Below, in pieces: positions 5,464 to 58,640 of a stretch of 60,529 nt of DNA. Every line of letters begins with the position of its first letter. The stretch's first letter is position 1. Origin of the DNA: Bacteroidia bacterium (lineage in GTDB: Bacteria > Bacteroidota > Bacteroidia > J057 > JADKCL01); the NCBI GenBank assembly GCA_041565275.1, contig JBFGVE010000003.1:1-60529 (forward strand). The letters run 5' to 3'. Both the position numbers and the translations under genes were made by a program. A model generated the notes under the pieces. It was given only the letters and a program-made list of their open reading frames with translations. It did no database searches and was not told where the DNA came from.

Positions 5464-6369
5464 ATGACTGTGCGGATTGGTACACGTGGAAGCAAACTTG
5501 CTTTGTGGCAAGCACACAAGGTAAAGCGCATCCTTGAGGGAGTTGGTTTGTCTACAGAGTTGATCCAATACAAGACTACGGGAGATATTCGCACCGACAC
5601 GGCACTGCATAATCTGGGAGAACGAGGCATTTTTACAAAAATCCTTGACGAAGCCCTGATAAACGGTGAAATTGAAATTGCCGTACATAGTTCGAAGGAT
5701 GTGCCTTCTAAAGTTCCGGAAGGTTTGGATCTGATCGCTTTTATGAAGCGTGAAGATCCGCGCGATGTACTTGTTGCTATTGATGAAGCCGTAGATTTGG
5801 ACAACCTGAATTCTACTTTGGTGATCGGAACATCTTCACTACGGCGACAATCACTTCTTATGCATTATTCTCCTCATTGTAAGGTGAAGGTGATTCGTGG
5901 AAATGTGGACACCCGAATTTTGAAACTCAAAGATGGGGCATACGATGCGCTCATCTTGGCTTACGCAGGTGTGAAAAGGATGGGATATCTTGATCTGGTC
6001 CGAAGAAAGTTGAATGTAAACACCTTTACCCCAGCCGTAGGGCAAGGCTCAATCGGAATTATGGGAAGTATTGAAGGGACTGGTTTGAACCAGGTACGAG
6101 AGGCTCTAAACCACAAGGAAACAGAGTTAGCTATTTCAGCCGAGCGAGCCTTTCTTCGTAAACTTGAAGGAGGCTGTCACACTCCTATTTTTGCTCTTGC
6201 CACGGTTATGGGAGAATCTCTTAGTTTACAGGGAGGATTGGGTTCCATTGATGGCAGTGTGATTATGCGTGAAAGTATTGAAGGGCATACCTCCCAGGCT
6301 AAGGCCCTTGGAAATCGCCTTGCTGAATCTTTATTATCTAAAGGGGCTACCGAAATATTAAATGGGTAA
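5464..6369 (+). CDS. hemC: Hydroxymethylbilane synthase (porphobilinogen deaminase)
   Basis: RIGTRGSKLALWQA, KTTGD, GIFTK, VHSSKD, REDPRD, IGTSSLRR, IRGNVDTR, AVGQG, ERAFLRKLEGGCHTPI. Confidence 0.97.
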   Translation: MTVRIGTRGSKLALWQAHKVKRILEGVGLSTELIQYKTTGDIRTDTALHNLGERGIFTKILDEALINGEIEIAVHSSKDVPSKVPEGLDLIAFMKREDPRDVLVAIDEAVDLDNLNSTLVIGTSSLRRQSLLMHYSPHCKVKVIRGNVDTRILKLKDGAYDALILAYAGVKRMGYLDLVRRKLNVNTFTPAVGQGSIGIMGSIEGTGLNQVREALNHKETELAISAERAFLRKLEGGCHTPIFALATVMGESLSLQGGLGSIDGSVIMRESIEGHTSQAKALGNRLAESLLSKGATEILNG

Positions 6370-7108
6370 ACAGGTCAATTCTATTTTGATTTCTCAGCCT
6401 TATCCATCGGATGAGAATTCACCATATTTTAAGCTTGCAAAGGAATGGGGGTTAAGGATCGATTTTCGCAAGTTTATTCAAATCGAGGGCATTTCTGTGA
6501 ATGAGTTCCGGAAGCAAAATATTAATCCTCTCGATTTTACTGCAATCATATTTACCAGCAAATATGCCATAGATCATTTCTTCAATTTGTTGTCTGAAGT
6601 CAAGATAGAACTCCCACCCGACATGAGATACTTCTGTGTTAGTGAGGCTACCGCAAGGTATCTACAAAAGCACATTACGGTCCGAAAGCGTAAACTTTTC
6701 GTTGGATCCAGGACTTCAAAAGACCTGATCGACGTGGTGAAGAAAAAGAAAGATGAAAAGTTCCTGTTCCCTTGCAGTTCCATTCACACCCGTCATTTGA
6801 CAGACTGGATGGAAGCGAACGGATATGACTTAACCAAGGTCGTTATCTATAATACTGTCCCAAGTGACCTTTCGGACCTTCGGGAAGTTTTTTATGATAT
6901 GATATGTTTCTATTCACCTTCAGGTGTAGAATCCCTGCTCAAGAACTTTTCTGACTTTGAGCAGAACGATACCATAATCGCTGCCTTTGGCCCTACGACT
7001 GCTAAAGCAGTAAAGGATGCAGGTTTAAGAGTTGATATTCAGGCTCCCAAACCAAGTATGCCATCCATGATTTCAGCGATCGAAGCATATCTCAAGCAGA
7101 ATCCATAA
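6362..7108 (+). CDS. hemD: Uroporphyrinogen-III synthase
   Basis: ILISQP, AIIFTSKYAIDHFF, FYSPSGVESL, AAFGPTTAKAV; overlaps hemC by 8 nt. Confidence 0.9.
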   Translation: MGKQVNSILISQPYPSDENSPYFKLAKEWGLRIDFRKFIQIEGISVNEFRKQNINPLDFTAIIFTSKYAIDHFFNLLSEVKIELPPDMRYFCVSEATARYLQKHITVRKRKLFVGSRTSKDLIDVVKKKKDEKFLFPCSSIHTRHLTDWMEANGYDLTKVVIYNTVPSDLSDLREVFYDMICFYSPSGVESLLKNFSDFEQNDTIIAAFGPTTAKAVKDAGLRVDIQAPKPSMPSMISAIEAYLKQNP

Positions 7109-49376: not shown

Positions 49377-52300
49377 ATGAAAAGAGTTTCGATTTTTGCG
49401 ATTCTGTCCTTGGTAATGCTCGCCTTTCGGCCAAACCATTCAGTGGCCTCCCACTTGATGGGGGTTGACCTCACCTATGAGTGTCTGGATGCGTGCACCA
49501 TACGGGTCCACCTCAGTGCATACAGAGACTGTTCCGGACAGTTTAGCATCCCTAATACGATCAGCTTTAAACCACAGACACCAGGCTGTGGCCAACCTAT
49601 TCTAGTGGGTAATGTGTCCCCTCAGGTCACTACTGAGGTGACCCCTGTTTGTCCCAATGCCCAAACACAGTGTGTCAACAGCAACTCCCAAATCAATGGT
49701 ACCCAGCAGTTTTACTGGTACAGGGACTACTACATTTGTTCTCAGCCCAACTGTATTTTTACCATTTCCTGGGGAACCTGCTGCCGGAATCAAGCAATAA
49801 CGTCCGGTGCTGCTAACGACGGAATGGGCATCTCTCAAACAACTCTGAATACCAATATTACTCCTTGCAATAGCTCGCCTCAATTTTCTAATCCCCCTGT
49901 TCCATATATCTGCGAAGGTCAACCATACGTCTTCAATCAGGGTGCAACCGATGCTGAAGGTGATTCGCTTTCTTACTCACTCGGCCCTTGTTTTGATGAA
50001 TTTGACAACCAAGTATCTTACGGAGCCGGTTACTCTCCAGGCCAACCACTCGGACCTACCTGGGATGTTTCCATCAACTCGGCAACTGGTGATATCACAG
50101 TTCTCCCAAATCCAACCGGTTCCCGGGTGGTAGGGGTTATGTGTGTATATGTAGAAGAGTGGCGAAATGGTGCCCTGATCAATACCATCGTTCGGGATAT
50201 TCAGATGACTACTATTCCTTGTGCCAATACCTTGCCGTCAATTGACTCCATCTCGAACCCAAGTACGGGTTTAACCAAAGGGTATGTGATCAATACTTGC
50301 CTTGGGGACAGTCTTTGCTTTGATTTGGCTGCTGTGGACCCAGATCTGGGCCAGACTATGACCATCTTCTGGAACCAGAATATCCCCGGTGGCACTTTTT
50401 TTGAAACCGGCAATCCAGCCAATACAGATACTATTACAGGCCTCGCTAGCCAAGGTCTGAGTGCAACCTTCTGTTGGCTTCCCCCTGCAGCTGGCGTTTA
50501 TGCTTTTCAGGTCACAGTTCAAGACGATGCCTGCCCGATTATCGGGCAGAGTCAATTTACCGTTCAGATTATTGTCCAAGATGTGATATCTGGCATTACC
50601 CAGGCCAACCCAAGTTGTGGAACGGTTACACTGTGTGCAACACCTTCGACCGGGGTCCCACCTTTCACATTCCAGTGGACAGGTAGTGGTGGCCTTTCTG
50701 CTAATCCCGGAGCGAACGATTCATGCGTAACACATTCATATGCAGCTACCGGAACTTATGATTACCAATTGTTGACCACCGATTCCAGCGGATGCTCTAC
50801 AGTTGATTCCGGTTCCACGACCTTCAGCATAAATGTACAGGCAAATGCCGGACCAGACATCTCTATCTGTTCAGGTGGTTCCGGGACGATCGGAGCTCCG
50901 CCCCTTGCCAACGAGGTTTATTCATGGTCTCCGACTACAGGCCTTAGTTCACCTACTTCTGCCAATCCATCTATCACTTTAATCAATGCCGGCACAACCA
51001 CAACTGTCCATCAGTATATCCTGACCACTACGGATACAACCGACGGCTGTACATCAGTAGACACAGTGGGTGTAACTGTCTATCCTGTCCCAAGTGCTTC
51101 TTTTACCAGTTCCTCTCAGACGTGTTTTGGCGATCCGATCACCTTTACATATACCGGCCACAACGGAACGGGCGCTGCTTTTAGCTGGAACTTTGCTGGT
51201 GGAACCCCTGCTAGTGCTTCAGGCCAGGGTCCACACAGTGTCACCTGGAGCACTCCCGGCCAAAAGACTATTAATCTGTCAGTGACTGAGAATGGTTGTA
51301 CCTCTCCAATAAACTCCCAAGCAATTACAATCCTGCAACCATTGACGGCCAATACCACCACCACTGCCAACTCCTGCGCGACCACGGCCGACAACGGAAC
51401 GGCTTCTGTTTTTCCTTCTGGCGGTAGTGGTGGATACACCTACCTATGGGATGATCCCAACGCACAGACGACTCAGCAGGCAACAGGTCTGACCCCTGGA
51501 TCCTACAATGTCACCGTTACGGATGCCAATAACTGCCAGGTAACGGCGAATGCGATCGTTGCCGACATTCCTCCTCCAACCGTTTCGGTCGGCCCTTCTG
51601 TTACCTTCTGTGAAGGTGAAGGCGGAGCCACCGTAACTGCCACTGCCTCCGGAGGAAATCCAGGTTACTCTTACCAATGGTCATGTAGTCTGACAAACTG
51701 TGGGATTGATTCTGTCTTTGACAATGATCCGCTGGTCAACCCTACTTCCTCTACTTGGTACTATGTCTACGCGGTAGATGCAAATGGTTGTATAAGTGAG
51801 ATTGACTCTGTTTGGGTTGAAGTTCTTGCCAAGCCTATCGTAGATGCCGGACAAGACATTATTCTATGTGGTGACAATGCTCCTTGTCAGAATTTACAAC
51901 CCACGGTTGCCAATATGGCCGGGCCGTTTACCTATTCCTGGTTTCCTTCAGATGGGTTGACCGATTCAACCCTTGTCGACCCTTGCGCCCGTCCTGATTC
52001 GACAACTATTTATACCCTAGTCGTTACAGCAAGCAATGGCTGCAAAAGTGATTTCACTACTGTGGATACAAATTCAACTGTAACGGTTCATGTCAATCCG
52101 GTCCCAGTAGCAGAAGCAGGTCCTGACCGGGACATCTGTTTTGGTGATACAGTACAATTGGAAGGATTTGGAAGTAATGCTGGCCCTTCTTACAGTTACC
52201 AGTGGTCGCCATTCCCGGTCATCAACCCATCTGCTGCCAATCCACTTGTGAACCCTGGCATTACCACGGTCTATTTTTTGACGGTGATCTCTAATGGTTG

Positions 52301-53849
52301 TCCCAGCTATACAGATTCAGTGACTGTTGAGGTCCATGCCCAACCAACGGTTGATCCTGGTCAGAATACAGGAACCTGCCTTGGAGTACCTGTCCTTCTG
52401 GATGCTCAGGCCGAGGACGGTACCCCCGGTACCCTTTTCACTTACGACTGGACCCCCGTCAATGTATTGAACGATCACACGCTGGCGGATCCAACAGCAA
52501 ACCCCGATACAACTACCACATTTACTGTGGTCGCTACCTCAGAATGGGGATGTGAATCAGCCCCTGCCAATGTACTGGTAACCGTTTTGCCTTCCCCAAT
52601 AGCGGAAGCAGGAGACAATATAACCCACTGTCTCGGCGATTCTCTAACCTTGCAGGGTGGGTATTTTTACACTACTACCCCTCCGGCTGATCCACAGGAC
52701 GTATTCATCGTCTGGAGCCCTAATACAAATATGGATGATCCAACCATTGCCATGCCAACGGTTGATCCGCAAGTATCCACTGTTTACTCTATGACTGTCA
52801 GCACTGGCCCCTGCTCCACGACCGATTCGGTTATAGTCACGGTCATCCCTGAGATTGGCCTGAATGCAACAGCCGATACCAATACTGCCTGTGAAGGTTC
52901 ACCAGTCCAACTGACTGCAACTGCAGGTATTGGAAGCGCTGATTTTCAGTGGTCCCCAATGGAAGGACTCGATGATCATAACAGTGCTACCCCGATAGCT
53001 ACGCCAGAGCAAACTACCACTTACTCGGTGATCGCATCTGAAAGTGGCTGCATGGATACAATGGAGGTCACAATAGAGATCATCCCTACTCCTAACCCAG
53101 CTTACCTAAGCTCGGCTACAGAGGGGTGTACCCCCCATACTGTCAACTTTTTCGATGCTTCGGACGATGCGGTCAATTACATTTGGGACTTTGGCGACGG
53201 CAGTAATGTCTCTAATGAGTCTCAGCCCAACCACGTTTACGCAGCACCGGGCACCTATTATGTATCACTTACCGTTTCTAATTTCGGTGGTTGCACTGCC
53301 ACAACTGATGAGATGGAGATCACAGTAATAGACCCGCCAATAGCAGAATTTACCTCCATTGAAGCCTTCCCTGCTGAACTTCCTCTACCCAATACCACGG
53401 TACAATTCATCAATCAGAGCCAGGGCGCAGTTTCTTACACCTGGTATTTTGGGGATGGAACAGCCTCTGATCTGGATAATCCCAGTCATACCTTTGACTC
53501 CATTGGCGAATTTGTAGTCACCCTGATCGCGTCCAACTCCCTCGGTTGCAATGACCAAGTTGTTCACGGTCCATATATCATCTTCGCACCTGACCTGTTC
53601 ATCCCGAACGTATTCAGCCCAAACAATGATAACATCAACGATCGGTTTCTGGTAGAGTACAGCGGATCCCAGACGTTCAATATCCAGATCTTCGACCGCT
53701 GGGGTGCACAACACTACGATTCGAACAACAAGATGGAAGGTTGGAATGGAAACTCCATGAACGGCAAAGCTGTCCCGGAAGGAGGCTACTTCTACCGCGT
53801 CAGGATCGGTGACCGGGAATATACAGGAGATGTGACCTTGGTGCGATGA
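49377..53849 (+). CDS. Large T9SS cargo (adhesin-like): SprB repeat, PKD and Ig-like repeats, type B gliding-motility CTD
   Basis: Signal peptide + SHLMGVDLTYEC; SprB repeat (GTASVFPSGGSGGYTYLW...TGLTPGSYNVTVTDANNC); PKD WDFGDG/WYFGDG; CTD FIPNVFSPNNDNINDRF...IFDRWG...GDVTLVR. Confidence 0.92.
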   Translation: MKRVSIFAILSLVMLAFRPNHSVASHLMGVDLTYECLDACTIRVHLSAYRDCSGQFSIPNTISFKPQTPGCGQPILVGNVSPQVTTEVTPVCPNAQTQCVNSNSQINGTQQFYWYRDYYICSQPNCIFTISWGTCCRNQAITSGAANDGMGISQTTLNTNITPCNSSPQFSNPPVPYICEGQPYVFNQGATDAEGDSLSYSLGPCFDEFDNQVSYGAGYSPGQPLGPTWDVSINSATGDITVLPNPTGSRVVGVMCVYVEEWRNGALINTIVRDIQMTTIPCANTLPSIDSISNPSTGLTKGYVINTCLGDSLCFDLAAVDPDLGQTMTIFWNQNIPGGTFFETGNPANTDTITGLASQGLSATFCWLPPAAGVYAFQVTVQDDACPIIGQSQFTVQIIVQDVISGITQANPSCGTVTLCATPSTGVPPFTFQWTGSGGLSANPGANDSCVTHSYAATGTYDYQLLTTDSSGCSTVDSGSTTFSINVQANAGPDISICSGGSGTIGAPPLANEVYSWSPTTGLSSPTSANPSITLINAGTTTTVHQYILTTTDTTDGCTSVDTVGVTVYPVPSASFTSSSQTCFGDPITFTYTGHNGTGAAFSWNFAGGTPASASGQGPHSVTWSTPGQKTINLSVTENGCTSPINSQAITILQPLTANTTTTANSCATTADNGTASVFPSGGSGGYTYLWDDPNAQTTQQATGLTPGSYNVTVTDANNCQVTANAIVADIPPPTVSVGPSVTFCEGEGGATVTATASGGNPGYSYQWSCSLTNCGIDSVFDNDPLVNPTSSTWYYVYAVDANGCISEIDSVWVEVLAKPIVDAGQDIILCGDNAPCQNLQPTVANMAGPFTYSWFPSDGLTDSTLVDPCARPDSTTIYTLVVTASNGCKSDFTTVDTNSTVTVHVNPVPVAEAGPDRDICFGDTVQLEGFGSNAGPSYSYQWSPFPVINPSAANPLVNPGITTVYFLTVISNGCPSYTDSVTVEVHAQPTVDPGQNTGTCLGVPVLLDAQAEDGTPGTLFTYDWTPVNVLNDHTLADPTANPDTTTTFTVVATSEWGCESAPANVLVTVLPSPIAEAGDNITHCLGDSLTLQGGYFYTTTPPADPQDVFIVWSPNTNMDDPTIAMPTVDPQVSTVYSMTVSTGPCSTTDSVIVTVIPEIGLNATADTNTACEGSPVQLTATAGIGSADFQWSPMEGLDDHNSATPIATPEQTTTYSVIASESGCMDTMEVTIEIIPTPNPAYLSSATEGCTPHTVNFFDASDDAVNYIWDFGDGSNVSNESQPNHVYAAPGTYYVSLTVSNFGGCTATTDEMEITVIDPPIAEFTSIEAFPAELPLPNTTVQFINQSQGAVSYTWYFGDGTASDLDNPSHTFDSIGEFVVTLIASNSLGCNDQVVHGPYIIFAPDLFIPNVFSPNNDNINDRFLVEYSGSQTFNIQIFDRWGAQHYDSNNKMEGWNGNSMNGKAVPEGGYFYRVRIGDREYTGDVTLVR

Positions 53850-53863
53850 CACCAGTAGTCTAT

Positions 53864-54790
53864 TCAGTAGGATGACCCGTCCCCAAATGCACCTCCTATT
53901 GGATGCCATGTAGTTTTGATCTCCTGCAGGTCCATGACAAAATAGGGGCTTTGAGCGTCTTCTACCAACCAATCGGTATTTTTCCAGAAAACGACCCGCT
54001 TGACATTTTCGGTGGCATTTTCCTGAATTGTTTTCAGATCTGCGCTGTCGCTGCCAGCATAAATCATGGCATTGACATCTTTGTGGGTAGAAAAATGTTT
54101 GATCAATTCGGTGCGGCGTCCGGTAAGAATATTGACGACCCCACCCGGAACATCAGATGAATTCAGAACCTCGGCAAATGAAATGGCACTAAGCGGGTGA
54201 CTTTCTGAAGCGAGTACGACAATGGCGTTGCCACCTCCGATCACAGGAGCTATGACAGAAATTAGCCCGATCAGTCCGTTTTCTTCGGGAGCAAATGCGC
54301 CAACCACACCCATAGGTTCTGTAACCGAAAAGTTAAAATGGGAAGAAGAGACAGGATTGACAGTGCTAAAGATCTGCTGGTATTTGTCACACCAGCCAGC
54401 ATAGTAGACCAATCGATCAATTGAAGCATTAACCTCATGTTCTGCATCTTCGGAAGTTGCACCGGTTTGTTGCAACTCATCCAGGAACTGGTATTTGCGA
54501 CCTTCCAACATTTCTGCAATTCGATATAAGATTTGGCCGCGGGTGTATGCTGGCTGACCAGCCCAACCACTTTCGGCTTTTCTAGCTGCTTCCACTGCAA
54601 TTCGAAAATCCTTTTCCGAGCCAAGGCACATATTGGCGATCAAGTGGCCGGACTCATCTAAAACCGGAAAAGACCTGCCTGACTCCGTGCGTGGAAATTT
54701 TCCGCCAATGTAAAGCTTATATGTTTTTTGAACAGAAACATGGGTACCGGGAGCAACATTCAATCTTTTATCTCTGTAATCCTCTGACAT
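53864..54790 (-). CDS. Truncated, non-catalytic aldehyde dehydrogenase-like protein (Rossmann + oligomerisation parts)
   Basis: KTYKLYIGGKFPRTESGR, YYAGWCDK, TEPMGVV, PGGVVNILTG, EIKTTWHPIG; lacks PWNFP, ELGGK and the catalytic-Cys domain. Confidence 0.9.
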   Translation of the reverse strand: MSEDYRDKRLNVAPGTHVSVQKTYKLYIGGKFPRTESGRSFPVLDESGHLIANMCLGSEKDFRIAVEAARKAESGWAGQPAYTRGQILYRIAEMLEGRKYQFLDELQQTGATSEDAEHEVNASIDRLVYYAGWCDKYQQIFSTVNPVSSSHFNFSVTEPMGVVGAFAPEENGLIGLISVIAPVIGGGNAIVVLASESHPLSAISFAEVLNSSDVPGGVVNILTGRRTELIKHFSTHKDVNAMIYAGSDSADLKTIQENATENVKRVVFWKNTDWLVEDAQSPYFVMDLQEIKTTWHPIGGAFGDGSSY

Positions 54791-56278
54791 TTATATTATT
54801 TTGTGATAATTCAGATAAGCGCTCAGGCCGTGGAGTCCGCCTTCCCGTCCAATGCCACTTTCTTTATAACCACCAAAGGGGGAAGCAGGGTCAAATTTGT
54901 TGAAAGTATTGGCCCAAACGACTCCGGCCCGCAGTTGATTGGTCAATTGGAATATTTTGGAGCCTTTGTCTGTCCAGACACCAGCCGAAAGCCCAAAAGG
55001 GGTATTGTTCGCCTTCTTGATGACCTCATTGACTGTTCGAAAAGTCTGCACTGCCAATACGGGTCCAAAAATCTCTTCCTGGACGATGCGACTGGATTGG
55101 GAAACATTGAGGAACAGCGAAGGTGCTACCCAATAACCCTTGCTGGGAATAGAGCAGGAAGTATGGTACAATTCTCCACCTTCTTTCACTCCGATCTCAA
55201 GATACTCCCGGATCTTCCTGAGCTGTTTCAAAGAATTGATAGCTCCCACATCGGTATTTTTGTCCAAAGGATCACCCATGATCAGGGTTTCCATCCTGTC
55301 TTTTAGTTTGTGAATTACCTTGTCAAAGACTGATTCCTGGACAAAAAGTCTGGAACCTGCACAGCAAACATGTCCTTGATTGAAGTAGATTCCATTGATA
55401 ATGCCCTCAACTGCCTGATCAATGGTTGCATCTTCGAAGATAATATTGGCAGCTTTACCACCTAGTTCGAGAGTTAACTTCTTACCAGTGCCCGCGATGG
55501 CACGCTGAATGATCTTTCCCACTTCGGTCGAGCCAGTGAAAGCAATTTTGTTGACATCTGGATGATTGACCAAGGCGGTACCAGTGCCACCGTGACCAGT
55601 CACTACATTGACTACGCCAGGCGGAAGATCAGCTTCTTGGATCAACTCCGCAAGCATCAATGAAGTGATGGAAGTTGTTTCTGCAGGCTTCAGGACCACT
55701 GTATTTCCGGTTGCCAGAGCTGGTGCCAATTTCCAGGCAGCCATTAAAAGTGGGAAATTCCAGGGGGTGATCTGCCCTACTACCCCGAGAGAAGACACAC
55801 TCCGCCCCGGAAATGCATATTCCAGCTTGTCAGCCCAACCAGCATAGTAGAAAAAATGGCTTGCTGCCAGGGGAATGTCCACATCACGAGATTCCCTGAT
55901 GGGCTTGCCACCGTCCATAGATTCCACTACGGCAAAGTCACGTGATCGCTCCTGGAGCATTCGGGCAATCCGGTAAAGGTATTTACTGCGGTCTTTGCCA
56001 GACATCCTCCTCCAATATTTTTCATACGCATTCCGCGCAGCACTTACAGCACGGTCCACATCATCTGCATTGGCCTCTGCAATTTCAGTCAGTTGATCTT
56101 CGCTGGAAGGGTTGATACTTGGGAAATACTTCCCCGATCGGGGCTTGGTCCATTTTCCATTGATAAACAACTCGTAGCGCTCCTTGATCTTAACGAAGCC
56201 GGTACCCTGAGGAGCTGGAGAGTATTCCCAGTCTGTTTTGAACTGAAGAGAGGGAGCAGGTCTTTTATTATCATCCAT
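54791..56278 (-). CDS. NAD-dependent aldehyde dehydrogenase
   Basis: ITPWNFPL, KPAET, FTGSTEVG, ELGGKA (Glu), NQGHVCCAGSR (Cys), EEIFGPV, FGGYKESG. Confidence 0.96.
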   Translation of the reverse strand: MDDNKRPAPSLQFKTDWEYSPAPQGTGFVKIKERYELFINGKWTKPRSGKYFPSINPSSEDQLTEIAEANADDVDRAVSAARNAYEKYWRRMSGKDRSKYLYRIARMLQERSRDFAVVESMDGGKPIRESRDVDIPLAASHFFYYAGWADKLEYAFPGRSVSSLGVVGQITPWNFPLLMAAWKLAPALATGNTVVLKPAETTSITSLMLAELIQEADLPPGVVNVVTGHGGTGTALVNHPDVNKIAFTGSTEVGKIIQRAIAGTGKKLTLELGGKAANIIFEDATIDQAVEGIINGIYFNQGHVCCAGSRLFVQESVFDKVIHKLKDRMETLIMGDPLDKNTDVGAINSLKQLRKIREYLEIGVKEGGELYHTSCSIPSKGYWVAPSLFLNVSQSSRIVQEEIFGPVLAVQTFRTVNEVIKKANNTPFGLSAGVWTDKGSKIFQLTNQLRAGVVWANTFNKFDPASPFGGYKESGIGREGGLHGLSAYLNYHKII

Positions 56279-56280
56279 AG

Positions 56281-57177
56281 TCAGTCAATGGAAAAGTAAT
56301 CAAAGCTTTGATAAACACCGGTTTCCTGCTTTACAATTTGGCGAAGGAGATCATTGATCAATGAAGAAGAACCAAAACGGAACCATTCATTGGTAAGCCA
56401 AGCCTGGCCGAGGGTTTCTTTTACCATTACCAAATAGGTGATTGCAGTTTTGGCCTCTCTGATCCCTCCGGCAGGTTTCATGCCGATCATTTTGCCCGTA
56501 TCATAGTAGAAGTCACGAATGGCTTCCAGCATCACCAAGGAAACAGAGAAAGTGGCTGCAGGGAAAATCTTGCCGGTCGATGTTTTGATAAAATCAGCTC
56601 CGGCATGCATAGCGATATCACTGGCACGGCGTACGTGGTCTAGGGAACCCAATTCGCCAGTTTCAAGGATTACCTTCAATCGGGCGTTGCCACAAGCTTC
56701 TTTGATAGCTGCGATTTCGTCATAGACACGGCTGTAGTTGCCACGGTGGTATTCACCACGGGCGATCACCATATCTATCTCGTCAGCACCGTTGGAAACC
56801 GCAAAGCGAGTGTCTTCCAATTTTACAGAAAGGGGTGATTGTCCGGCCGGGAAAGCTGTGGCTACTGCTGCCACCTTGACGCCAGACCCTTTCAATGCTT
56901 CAGTTGCTATCTTTACCAGAGTGGGGTAGACACAAACTGCGGCAGTACTCGGAAGCCCGGGATAAGCAAGGTGAGGATGCATCGCTTTGTAAGACATTTG
57001 CCTCACTTTCCCGGGAGTGTCTGCACCTTCCAAGGTTGTTAGGTCTATCATACTCAAAGCCAGCTTCAATGCATCTACTTTGGACGATTTCTTAATACTC
57101 CGCTTGCGGAATTTAGATACGCGCTCATGGACGCCAGTCTGGTCCACAGCAGGAGAATGCAAAGGATTGAAGTTCAT
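56281..57177 (-). CDS. deoC: Deoxyribose-phosphate aldolase (long type)
   Basis: IDLTTLEGADT, AAVCVYP, AFPAGQ, GADEIDMVI, LKVILETGEL, GADFIKTSTGK, KPAGGIR, RFGSSSL. ATG 57177 preferred; TATCTTGC promoter-like motif lies just before GTG 57204. Confidence 0.96.
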   Translation of the reverse strand: MNFNPLHSPAVDQTGVHERVSKFRKRSIKKSSKVDALKLALSMIDLTTLEGADTPGKVRQMSYKAMHPHLAYPGLPSTAAVCVYPTLVKIATEALKGSGVKVAAVATAFPAGQSPLSVKLEDTRFAVSNGADEIDMVIARGEYHRGNYSRVYDEIAAIKEACGNARLKVILETGELGSLDHVRRASDIAMHAGADFIKTSTGKIFPAATFSVSLVMLEAIRDFYYDTGKMIGMKPAGGIREAKTAITYLVMVKETLGQAWLTNEWFRFGSSSLINDLLRQIVKQETGVYQSFDYFSID

Positions 57178-57278
57178 GGATCCTATTCTGCTCTTATCTG
57201 TCACGCAAGATAGTCATCTCACGCGTATGTTCCTCCATATCATGACTCTCCGATTTTAATCCTGGCAGGAATTAACAG

Positions 57279-58607
57279 TCACATGACTCGCTTCAAGATG
57301 AACAAGACTATGATCAGGAAAACGCTCCCAAACAGCATAGGGATCCAATTGTTTTGGTTACGCTCCCTCGTCTTCCCACTGTCCGACCCTACCAACAGAT
57401 CATTTTTTTTCGACTCCACAGCAAATCCTTCTACATCGTCCTTCACAGACTGAGAAAAGGAATTTCTCAGAATATCCCACAGACCATCAAAGCCATAATC
57501 GTACCCCAGCGCCCAAATCGCTACCCCACCGAGGTTTCGGTCATTGACCAGATCATAGCGGGCTTGAATACTGGTTCCATCCGAGATCCTGATCTCGTAA
57601 CCACTGCCACTTGGATCTCTGAAAGCGGACCAGTTCTCCCGGCCCACCGGATCCAGCTCAACCGAATAATTGTAATTTCGTTTGAGGTTTCTATAGGTAA
57701 TCAATTCAGGGGGCCTTTCAAACTGCTTTCCGAGTGATGTATCCGGGTGAAGCTTCCATTTCCAAGAATAATTGGGAACGCTGAGAATCATGTTCTCTTT
57801 GGGGATACCTGCTTTTAACCAATTGGAAATGCAGGCGTCAACGCTCTTATCCTCCCAATAACTCCCGGACCACAGAGGGGCTACCGGCCCGGCTGTCAGG
57901 CTACCCTTCCAGTCGTAAGGTTTTACCACAAACCGGTTCACCAGCAGACGAAGAGAATTAACGTCAAATGCCTTTTCTTCATCCTTTCCGGGAAGACAAA
58001 CCGTGATGCCGACTTTGGGCAGGTGCTTTGCCAGGCTGTCTTTCAATTGGCGAACCAGCTTGGTAAAAGCATCGCGTTGATCACCGGGTAGGGCTTCAAA
58101 ATCAAGGCAGACACCGTCTCCGCCGCGAAGTCGTACCAAAGCCACTACACTGTCCACCAAAGTCGTTACCGATTGAGAATTGTTTAACAATTGACGGTTA
58201 GCTGCTTTTGATCCGGTTGCAACCGCAAGCTCCACCGCTGAACCCTTCTCATGGGCGCGGTTGATCATACGGGTGGTCTTCCAGAAATAAAGGCTTTTAT
58301 AGGATCCGGTGGCTGGGTCAACGACATAGCCGTAGTAAGCGACCATTGGTAAAAGCCCATAGTCTAAAAACTTCCAACTCGTTCCACACCAACCGGGGTA
58401 GAAACCGTAAACTTCTCTGCGCATGAAGTGCTTATTGGTGTGCCTTGGGTTTGAGGGACCGCTCAGGCCCATCACCGCATCGTAATCTGCTTCAGAACCA
58501 GCAGAGGGTGTATGAAATAATTCATGTTGGTAGTAGTGTCCTTGCTGGGCAAACAGAACAGAAGAAACCAGGAATGGAGAGAGAAGAAATATTAATTTCC
58601 GGATCAT
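57279..58607 (-). CDS. Glycoside hydrolase family 18 protein with C-terminal membrane anchor
   Basis: Signal peptide, EVYGFYPGW, DGVCLDFE, PYDWKG, AGPVAPL, LGGVAIWALGYD; C-terminal TM WIPMLFGSVFLIIVLFIL. Confidence 0.85.
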   Translation of the reverse strand: MIRKLIFLLSPFLVSSVLFAQQGHYYQHELFHTPSAGSEADYDAVMGLSGPSNPRHTNKHFMRREVYGFYPGWCGTSWKFLDYGLLPMVAYYGYVVDPATGSYKSLYFWKTTRMINRAHEKGSAVELAVATGSKAANRQLLNNSQSVTTLVDSVVALVRLRGGDGVCLDFEALPGDQRDAFTKLVRQLKDSLAKHLPKVGITVCLPGKDEEKAFDVNSLRLLVNRFVVKPYDWKGSLTAGPVAPLWSGSYWEDKSVDACISNWLKAGIPKENMILSVPNYSWKWKLHPDTSLGKQFERPPELITYRNLKRNYNYSVELDPVGRENWSAFRDPSGSGYEIRISDGTSIQARYDLVNDRNLGGVAIWALGYDYGFDGLWDILRNSFSQSVKDDVEGFAVESKKNDLLVGSDSGKTRERNQNNWIPMLFGSVFLIIVLFILKRVM

Positions 58608-58640
58608 ACCTTCAAAAATAGCAAATGAAAGGCATGATCT

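Follow-up and report, generated by a model that had tools for sequence, protein, structure and literature searches.

Of all aldehyde dehydrogenase (ALDH) families, ALDH16 has been described as the most enigmatic, and its human member is a pseudoenzyme linked to gout. The structure of the extra domain of ALDH16 has been solved, and to our knowledge no physiological role or pathway has ever been assigned to it. The Loktanella ALDH16 structure was reportedly described by Liu and Tanner in 2019 (J Mol Biol 431:524). Structures of the Loktanella sp. enzyme are available as PDB 6MVR, 6MVS, 6MVT and 6MVU, and, according to two reviews (PMC8160307; PMC12041015), the extra domain sits against the ALDH module and takes the place that the second subunit has in the classic ALDH dimer. 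In the Loktanella chain, an active ALDH module with a short hairpin precedes a non-catalytic Rossmann-plus-flap domain ending in a ...K(T)xW.P strand; the two proteins described here, L and S, have the same arrangement, but their modules are two genes and two polypeptides instead of one chain. Human ALDH16A1, likened here by literature description, shares the two-module family architecture (PMC12041015), yet it is a single chain without catalytic residues, whereas in our case L has an intact catalytic module and S alone is non-catalytic. Akin to S, the C-terminal domain of Type B/C PutA has a Rossmann-plus-flap fold without catalytic function and, through within-chain contacts, substitutes for the classic-dimer partner (PMC12041015), although this likeness holds at the level of the ALDH superfamily, PutA being of another ALDH family, acting in proline catabolism and always fused. 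The classic ALDH1/ALDH2 homotetramers are ~43% identical to L, and a model of L superposes on ALDH1A2/ALDH2 chains with a TM-score of ~0.9 (target-normalised); unlike L and S, these enzymes have their hairpin and C-terminal tail in full, they assemble as domain-swapped homodimers, and no gene for a dedicated non-catalytic partner accompanies them.

In the window (the whole stretch of DNA analysed, 60,529 nucleotides from a Bacteroidia bacterium), deoC, a long ALDH gene (L) and a short ALDH-like gene (S) are tightly packed on the minus strand and form a compact three-gene operon, deoC, ALDH16-L, ALDH16-S. The initial annotation had set this locus at 53864-57177 and had named the three genes correctly, but deoC extends to a GTG at 57204, position 57177 being its first in-frame ATG. 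The deoC stop codon is TGA, with 2 nt to the ATG of L. The features are as follows, from upstream to downstream:

57279..58607, minus strand: GH18-family gene, 442 aa, 75 nt upstream of deoC (Pfam Glyco_hydro_18, E 6e-27)
56281..57204, minus strand: deoC, deoxyribose-phosphate aldolase, 307 aa, GTG start at 57204
54791..56278, minus strand: ALDH16 long catalytic subunit (L), 495 aa, TAA stop at 54793-54791
55778..55831, minus strand: shortened oligomerisation hairpin of L, DKLEYAFPGRSVSSLGVV, residues 150-167, located by alignment
55352..55372, minus strand: catalytic Cys loop of L, HVCCAGS, residues 303-309, aligned with VCCAGSR of 6MVR
54788..54793, minus strand: junction TAA/ATG, where the L stop abuts the S start, in frame and without intervening nucleotides
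53864..54790, minus strand: ALDH16 short non-catalytic subunit (S), 308 aa, ATG at 54790-54788
54302..54388, minus strand: full-length hairpin (flap) of S, DKYQQIFSTVNPVSSSHFNFSVTEPMGVV, residues 135-163, located by alignment
53900..53923, minus strand: C-terminal strand of S, EIKTTWHP, residues 290-297, a modelled strand at 785-793 of the concatenate

The two proteins joined end to end (804 aa in a hypothetical read-through) align with the Loktanella enzyme in one colinear stretch, residues 17-795 of the concatenate against 11-766 of 6MVR (E 3e-189, 634 bits), as opposed to ordinary ALDHs, which score ~435 bits and cover the first 490 residues only. The alignment that had been suggested along with the assignment to ALDH16 therefore bears that assignment out. 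Taking ALDH16 as CDD cd07111, with the Loktanella enzyme as archetype, we find an ALDH module and an extra C-terminal Rossmann-plus-flap domain in the archetypal order, a short hairpin on the former and a full flap on the latter, the catalytic Asn, Glu and Cys of the bacterial members in L, and a tree in which L groups with ALDH16 and not with another ALDH family. The departure lies in the chain: canonical members carry both modules on ~750-800 aa, and here a TAA parts a 495-aa from a 308-aa ORF. Because this stop separates the ORFs and because thousands of free-standing S proteins exist, we regard the locus as a two-subunit ALDH16 variant and not as a canonical member. NCBIfam holds no model specific to L or to S.

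L is, as far as its residues tell, a complete and catalytically competent ALDH with a shortened oligomerisation hairpin. It matches Pfam Aldedh (E 7e-162, L residues 43-492), aligns with residues 11 to ~480 of 6MVR and retains every motif (PWNFP, VVLKPAE, FTGSTEVG, ELGGK, HVCCAGS and EEIFGPV); the catalytic Asn, Lys, Glu and Cys are kept in PWNFP, VVLKPAE, ELGGK and HVCCAGS, respectively, and alignment to Cys302 of ALDH2 designates Cys305 as the nucleophile. The hairpin, between AGWADK and GQITPWNFP, lacks 11 residues relative to S and is ~8 residues shorter than in two ordinary paralogous ALDHs that this genome encodes, and P0218, a natural fused ALDH16, shows the same deletion in its N-module. 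Compared with a same-genus relative, L has a dN/dS of 0.055.

S, by contrast, matches only profile positions 9-233 of the 461 in Pfam Aldedh, and because the match stops there we conclude, as the initial annotation had, that S is without a catalytic domain. In 6MVR its counterpart by alignment is the C-terminal domain (residues ~505-766), and the cofactor motifs of S are degenerate, with VVLASES in place of VVLKPAE and GSDSAD in place of GSTEVG. The full hairpin, modelled in the concatenate as strands 639-643, 647-655 and 658-662, recurs in the C-module of P0218, and K788 and W791 of the C-terminal strand (concatenate numbering) occur without exception in 109 fused and split homologues. By homology, then, S is a free-standing counterpart of the extra C-terminal domain of ALDH16, with its Rossmann-like fold, flap and C-terminal strand. 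Its dN/dS of 0.10 relative to the same-genus homologue denotes purifying selection. The two halves had been described as complementary, and this stands for the short hairpin of L and for the full hairpin and C-terminal strand of S; the tail of L (NYHKII), said to lack the C-terminal strand, falls a few residues short of that of ordinary ALDHs, yet AlphaFold2 still models it as a strand (489-493).

The boundary between the two genes reads ...CAC AAA ATA ATA TAA ATG TCA GAG... (H K I I stop M S E), exactly as first noted: the TAA of the 495-aa ALDH directly abuts the ATG of the 308-aa ORF in one frame, adding up to 804 aa. That the gene is "split in frame at a single TAA" does not extend to its relatives, whose L/S junctions comprise overlaps or spacers of 1, 11, 25, 33, 43, 139, 229 and ~1100 nt (in three relatives two unrelated genes lie between L and S), with different stop codons and all of the relative frames 0, 1 and 2. 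Since relatives vary in stop, spacer and frame, we take the in-frame abutment to be an incidental, tightly coupled gene boundary. Among 12 junctions from relatives that were not ranked by alignment, three are in frame, the rate expected by chance; loci L020-L041 were left out of this count, as tblastn alignments that run through in-frame stops rank highest and would bias it.

A programmed read-through of the TAA, yielding a fused ALDH16 of 804 aa in addition to the two subunits or in their place, would agree with the common frame and zero spacer, with natural fused proteins of similar junction length (e.g. P0144 and P0142) and with G025, a relative of the same order that likewise has an in-frame TAA at its L/S junction. 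We nevertheless hold it to be extremely improbable: the frame relation is not conserved, the same-genus relative has a TGA, a 43-nt spacer and S in frame +1, the ATG of S itself sits exactly at the boundary, no recoding signal was seen at the junction, and TAA is the most efficient stop codon of bacteria. Nor does it seem credible that a fused ALDH16 is really, or was recently, encoded here and that the TAA is an error or a fresh nonsense mutation. One base change could create it, and the exact 308-aa protein (P0001) is known, among the matches listed, from this contig only; yet all close relatives are split, the ATG after the stop lies precisely where S homologues start, and S is under the purifying selection described above. 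We take the TAA to be neither a nonsense mutation in a fused gene nor a read-through site. It would act as a genuine stop codon, the abutting ATG would favour equal amounts of the subunits through termination-reinitiation coupling, and the frame shared by L and S would be due to chance.

The same locus had also been called a snapshot of ALDH16 fusion or fission, but the split state is old. Free-standing S homologues fall into at least 8000 protein clusters (286-363 aa among the 120 listed), and S was found in 74 of 301 sampled Bacteroidota genomes, in 73 of which (73/74) it is an open frame of 285-356 aa and the form is split; the split form is the norm of the phylum. Two-gene ALDH16 is an ancient and common state in Bacteroidota and in several other phyla. 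In a tree of fused and split forms, as had been proposed at the outset, the L clade is the sister of the canonical fused ALDH16 clade (SH-aLRT 97), to which L is 47-55% and S 36-44% identical. The window's clade is mostly split, the window's L lies deep within an all-split Bacteroidota part of it, and genuine fused proteins are nested inside it. Nine changes of state are needed, at least six of them forced by well-supported branches, and fused and split forms have interchanged repeatedly; the root is a single very long outgroup branch, and the tree fixes no direction for these changes. Five fused entries (P0122, P0125, P0127, P0129 and P0185), in which an arginine-rich, out-of-frame-looking stretch replaces the end of the catalytic domain, look like frameshifted calls from GC-rich genomes with the S frame open upstream, and were left out of the tree. 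L029 (Crocinitomicaceae) was dropped as a fused form on account of a stop inside its L region.

L and S keep close company. In 41 related genomes, L-type genes occur in 14 and S in all 14 of these, a fused gene occurs in two, and the others have neither; pairwise distances of L and S correlate with r = 0.94 overall and 0.84 among split forms only. Strict co-occurrence, co-evolution, purifying selection and the existence of fused counterparts support, at the level of sequence, the heteromer with a pseudoenzyme subunit that had been proposed, and a catalytic L paired with a pseudoenzyme S is the best reading of the pair. L and S would form a pair that mimics the classic ALDH dimer, and in place of the oligomerisation domain that a partner would put on the catalytic domain of L there would be the flap of S; two such pairs would build an L2S2 particle resembling the ALDH16 dimer.

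Alternatively, L might be a self-sufficient homo-oligomer and S a regulator or scaffold, with a role such as DeoC binding or NAD(H) sensing. The short C-terminal strand and the part of the hairpin that remain in L are compatible with such independent functions, as are the three relatives in which two genes come between L and S. So is the AlphaFold2 model of the concatenate (pLDDT 89.9, pTM 0.85), in which S does not dock as in 6MVR: in this single-chain stand-in for a multimer, the S half is placed otherwise (TM 0.54-0.58, rmsd 27 Å), whereas a natural fused homologue modelled from the same alignment as a control reproduces 6MVS (TM 0.94-0.98, rmsd 1.4 Å). We used the concatenate model as evidence neither for nor against L-S docking. 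Two proteins that strictly co-occur, strongly co-evolve and are repeatedly fused argue against separate functions, as does the homologous domain that packs on the ALDH module of the solved fused enzyme (PMC8160307; PMC12041015), and we judge such functions very unlikely.

The first gene of the operon encodes a DERA class I aldolase, scoring 185.8 bits against the NCBIfam equivalog TIGR00126 (cut-off 117.3), matching Pfam DeoC and aligning over residues 46-290 with the solved E. coli DERA structure 1JCL (E 1.6e-49), relative to which it carries an N-terminal extension of ~45 residues; its dN/dS is 0.053 relative to the same-genus homologue. The link between deoC and ALDH16 is widespread. Of the 71 loci with enough upstream sequence, 66 have deoC no more than 1 kb upstream and in the same orientation (12 of 13 fused, 54 of 58 split loci), and this adjacency spans Bacteroidota, Balneolaceae, Verrucomicrobia, Actinomycetota, Chloroflexota, Planctomycetota, Myxococcota and others, so that the two-gene versions beside deoC, which the initial annotation had mentioned, are indeed common, and the Loktanella-type fused clade has deoC directly upstream as well. 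A 1061-aa frame in G184 that resembled a DeoC-ALDH16 fusion proved to be a GC-rich read-on, with deoC in another frame.

Because deoC is directly upstream in 66 of 71 loci, fused or split, acetaldehyde is the likely substrate; the removal of DeoC-derived acetaldehyde, as originally suggested, fits this very strong conservation of gene order. L and S together would oxidise acetaldehyde, freed by DeoC from 2-deoxyribose 5-phosphate, to acetate with NAD(P)+. The same heteromer might instead act on another aldehyde tied to DeoC chemistry, or on one from lipid or other metabolism, which would change the function but leave the structural reading as it stands. DeoC makes no free toxic aldehyde other than acetaldehyde, which counts against another substrate, as do the deoC adjacency across many phyla and in both forms and the nucleoside phosphorylase genes that often lie alongside (the module is flanked by purine nucleoside phosphorylase genes in 10 loci and by pyrimidine ones in 7). 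In its favour, the pair lies away from deoC in 5 of the 71 loci, no match to the phosphopentomutase DeoB (TIGR01696) was obtained in the 98.7% complete genome, a result that weighs against acetaldehyde removal, and the review PMC12041015 reports Loktanella ALDH16 as assayed and active on medium-chain aldehydes such as hexanal. On balance we consider another substrate rather unlikely. Our reading as a whole, that is, a deoC-L-S operon producing a heteromeric L2S2 ALDH16 that oxidises the acetaldehyde of DeoC, with the TAA as a genuine stop, we regard as probable.

Our literature search found no paper that describes the split form of ALDH16 or its deoC link. The two-gene form shows the extra domain to be a module in its own right, translated separately and, many times over, joined to its partner or parted from it, and a catalytic subunit that can be expressed with or without S offers a direct handle on the role of that domain. 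The near-universal place behind deoC suggests acetaldehyde removal in deoxynucleoside breakdown. Moreover, short database entries named "aldehyde dehydrogenase family protein" would, in thousands of cases, be non-catalytic subunits and not enzymes or fragments. A more far-reaching idea, which we think quite doubtful, is that ALDH16, fused or split, is a dedicated and ancient partner of DeoC, the L2S2 particle or fused dimer binding DeoC and taking acetaldehyde from it directly, with either the S module or the N-terminal extension conserved in long-form DeoC as docking surface. If this were true, the ALDH superfamily would have in the split form its first obligate heteromer of a catalytic subunit and a pseudoenzyme, and the link to nucleoside catabolism might explain the tie of animal ALDH16A1 to urate and gout.

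A scan for terminators gave counts at chance level, and the Bacteroidota-type promoter motif TAnnTTTG was in no excess over chance across the window. The sole such motif near the operon on the minus strand, at 58613-58620, lies just 5' of the GH18 gene, which may be co-transcribed with the deoC operon. The GH18 gene is outside the conserved deoC-L-S module and, among the relatives compared, is found 5' of deoC in the same-genus relative only.

The deoC gene, the gene for the long catalytic aldehyde dehydrogenase (ALDH; L) and the short, non-catalytic ORF (S) follow one another on the minus strand, and are arranged with their neighbours as follows:

49377-53849, plus strand: gene for a 1490-aa repeat-rich protein, convergent on S, the two stop codons lying 14 nt apart
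54790-53864, minus strand: S, the short ALDH-like ORF (308 aa)
56278-54791, minus strand: L, the long ALDH (495 aa)
57204-56281, minus strand: deoC (307 aa, GTG start; its first ATG, at 57177, is the end coordinate used in the initial annotation)
57279-58607, minus strand: gene for a GH18-family protein (442 aa), 75 nt upstream of deoC

The deoC product has a Pfam DeoC match, scores 185.8 bits against the NCBIfam deoC equivalog (cut-off 117.3) and matches E. coli DERA (E ~1e-49). Its gene ends in TGA, with the ATG of L two bases further on, and the stop codon of L abuts the start codon of S in a shared frame (...CAC AAA ATA ATA TAA ATG TCA GAG...); with junctions this short, deoC, L and S form one tightly packed unit. 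The sequence coordinates confirm the three genes and the zero-spacer, in-frame TAA/ATG boundary reported in the initial annotation. As for the neighbours, the 1490-aa protein has a C-terminal segment that we take to resemble a gliding/T9SS-type sorting domain, while the GH18-family protein has a hydrophobic N-terminus and a hydrophobic C-terminal segment and is found upstream of deoC in the same-genus relative and in no other relative.

L contains a full Aldedh domain (E 7e-162), while S covers only positions 9-233 of the 461 in that profile. When the TAA was treated as a residue, giving a chain of 804 aa, residues 17-795 of this concatenate aligned in one stretch with residues 11-766 of the Loktanella ALDH16 (6MVR, 6MVU; E 3e-189), and are thus colinear with it, whereas ordinary ALDHs matched the first ~490 residues only, at scores ~200 bits lower. 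The catalytic and cofactor motifs are kept in L (PWNFP, VVLKPAE, FTGSTEVG, ELGGK, HVCCAGS and EEIFGPV), and the cofactor motifs of S are degenerate (VVLASES, GSDSAD). L and S were aligned with the two halves of P0218, a naturally fused ALDH16, and with two ordinary paralogues from the genome that holds the window. The oligomerisation hairpin has the same 11-residue deletion in L and in the N-module of P0218, and is complete in S and in the C-module of P0218; in S, moreover, the Rossmann half runs directly into a terminal strand, EIKTTWHP. The argument that the two halves are complementary, one supplying what the other lacks, is therefore essentially correct, except that L does keep a terminal strand, a short one at residues 489-493 of the AlphaFold2 model of the concatenate.

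The proposal that an ALDH16-like enzyme had been broken at a single TAA, giving a snapshot of fission, did not survive comparison with other genomes. A search for S homologues returned at least 8000 clusters; each of the 120 matches listed was a free-standing protein, 286-363 aa long, and those with names are called 'aldehyde dehydrogenase family protein' from Bacteroidota. In an even sample of the phylum, S was present in 74 of 301 genomes, with an open frame of 285-356 aa in 73 of these 74. Among 41 related genomes, 14 carry an L-type gene and every one of these also carries S; two have a true fused gene (802 or 812 aa, 47-49% identity), and the remainder have neither. The spacers between L and S in twelve relatives measured 0, 1, 1, 11, 25, 33, 43, 139 and 229 nt, and ~1.1 kb in three; the stop codon was TAA or TGA, all three relative frames were represented, and the junction was in frame in 3 of the 12, which is the chance rate. 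In the same-genus relative, L ends in TGA and is followed after 43 nt by S in frame +1. Since the split is widespread and its spacers and frames vary among relatives, the TAA did not arise as a recent nonsense mutation: separate L and S genes are an old and frequent arrangement, the sharing of a frame by L and S is incidental, and the zero-spacer in-frame junction, which is specific to the window, is an ordinary coupled gene boundary. Read-through of the TAA into a single chain had also been considered, and nothing in these sequences points to selection for it.

Several lines of evidence argue for a partnership between the two proteins. Besides their strict co-occurrence, pairwise distances of L and of S across 70 loci were correlated (r 0.94 overall, 0.84 among split forms), with S evolving at ~1.5 times the rate of L, and dN/dS against the same-genus relative was low for S (0.10), L (0.055) and deoC (0.053). 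When L sequences taken from a genome collection were placed on a tree, one well-supported branch (SH-aLRT 97) divided the canonical fused clade, of Loktanella type, from the split clade; in a second tree, to which fused proteins from a protein database had been added (mostly GC-rich and actinobacterial-looking), fused forms were nested at several points within the split clade. This second tree needs nine state changes, and strongly supported branches impose at least six of these; the very long outgroup branch limits any call on whether the ancestral state was fused or split. The linkers that join the modules in nature vary in length, from next to nothing up to ~110 residues. Repeated fusion and separation of the same two modules is a classic sign that they are subunits of one complex, and the reading of L and S as a probable heteromeric split ALDH16, already put forward in the initial annotation, stands, so that the interpretation offered there is supported in part.

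We note that in five database entries for 'fused ALDH16' (P0122, P0125, P0127, P0129 and P0185) the catalytic module lacks its final ~130 residues and has in their place an Arg/Pro-rich stretch, apparently translated in the frame of S. As this frame is open far upstream in GC-rich genomes, one indel yields a false fusion, and database counts of fused ALDH16 are probably inflated. L is 65-75% identical across Bacteroidota, Planctomycetota, Ignavibacteria, Marinimicrobia and a gammaproteobacterial (Woeseiaceae) MAG, and these groups interleave on the L tree, suggesting that the whole deoC-L-S module may have spread horizontally.

AlphaFold2, run on the concatenate with an alignment of 109 fused and split homologues, gave a model with pLDDT 89.9 and pTM 0.85, in which junction residues 503-510 were disordered. 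Foldseek placed 6MVS and 6MVR at the top, yet with TM 0.54-0.58 and an rmsd of 27 Å, indicating that the halves fit singly but are placed differently relative to each other. The control, P0218 folded with the same alignment, matched 6MVS (TM 0.94-0.98, rmsd 1.4 Å), so AlphaFold2 is able to reproduce the ALDH16 arrangement, and the artificial concatenate did not show it. The position of S in the concatenate model might correspond to the alternative contact between S and L within an L2S2 particle.

The link between ALDH16 and deoC holds well beyond the window. Among relatives, deoC lies directly upstream at every locus, split or fused alike. With one genome taken per species, a scan gave 80 loci, from Bacteroidota, Balneolaceae, Verrucomicrobia, Actinomycetota (including Streptomyces, Streptosporangium and Micromonospora), Chloroflexota, Planctomycetota, Marinimicrobia, Ignavibacteria, Myxococcota, Acidobacteriota and Alphaproteobacteria, and in 66 of the 71 with enough upstream sequence (fused 12/13, split 54/58) a deoC gene of the same orientation lies no more than 1 kb upstream. 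Clustering of flanking ORFs revealed no other widely shared neighbour besides two nucleoside phosphorylases, for purines near 10 loci and for pyrimidines near 7, mainly beside fused Flavobacteriaceae genes. DeoC cleaves deoxyribose 5-phosphate to glyceraldehyde 3-phosphate and acetaldehyde, and the simplest reading of the linkage is that ALDH16 would remove the acetaldehyde so released. Two observations weigh against this role: the solved Loktanella ALDH16 was assayed with hexanal-type aldehydes (PMC12041015), and the genome that contains the window, rated 98.7% complete, gave no match to the phosphopentomutase DeoB (TIGR01696). It does carry deoC and two genes of the PNP_UDP_1 (nucleoside phosphorylase) family, and its route to deoxyribose 5-phosphate may use another mutase family or a deoxyribokinase.

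Bacterial ALDH16 is the closest known system, and L and S have its domains, its deletion in the hairpin and its catalytic residues, but it is defined by a single-chain architecture and the pair is encoded by two genes; we therefore file the locus as a two-subunit variant rather than a canonical member. Our literature search found no paper mentioning a split ALDH16, nor one linking ALDH16 to deoC or DERA. The interest belongs to the whole family, which offers a natural way of testing the extra domain of ALDH16 and suggests in which pathway these orphan enzymes may act.

Some variation among genomes deserves mention. The assembly containing the window is 3.3 Mb at 98.7% completeness and two genomes placed in the same genus are 7.3-7.4 Mb, a size gap unusually large within one genus. 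The ~1.1-kb spacers in three same-family relatives (loci L015, L016 and L017) hold two small, unrelated inserted genes, which in L015 (4612-5729; G008:C330) are co-directional with L and S and encode proteins of 192 aa, with no Pfam match, and 180 aa, with weak, below-threshold matches to DUF4276, DUF3226 and Toprim; the insert looks like an accessory cassette inside the operon. In many relatives (L015, at 5735-6856; L004, L005, L008, L010 and L011) S begins with MAKTK and continues into a Lys/Ala/Pro-rich low-complexity extension, ~95 residues long in G008 (the L015 genome), and reminiscent of the long linkers seen in some actinobacterial fusion proteins. The S of the window is without this extension and begins 21 residues ahead of the conserved KTYKLYIGG.
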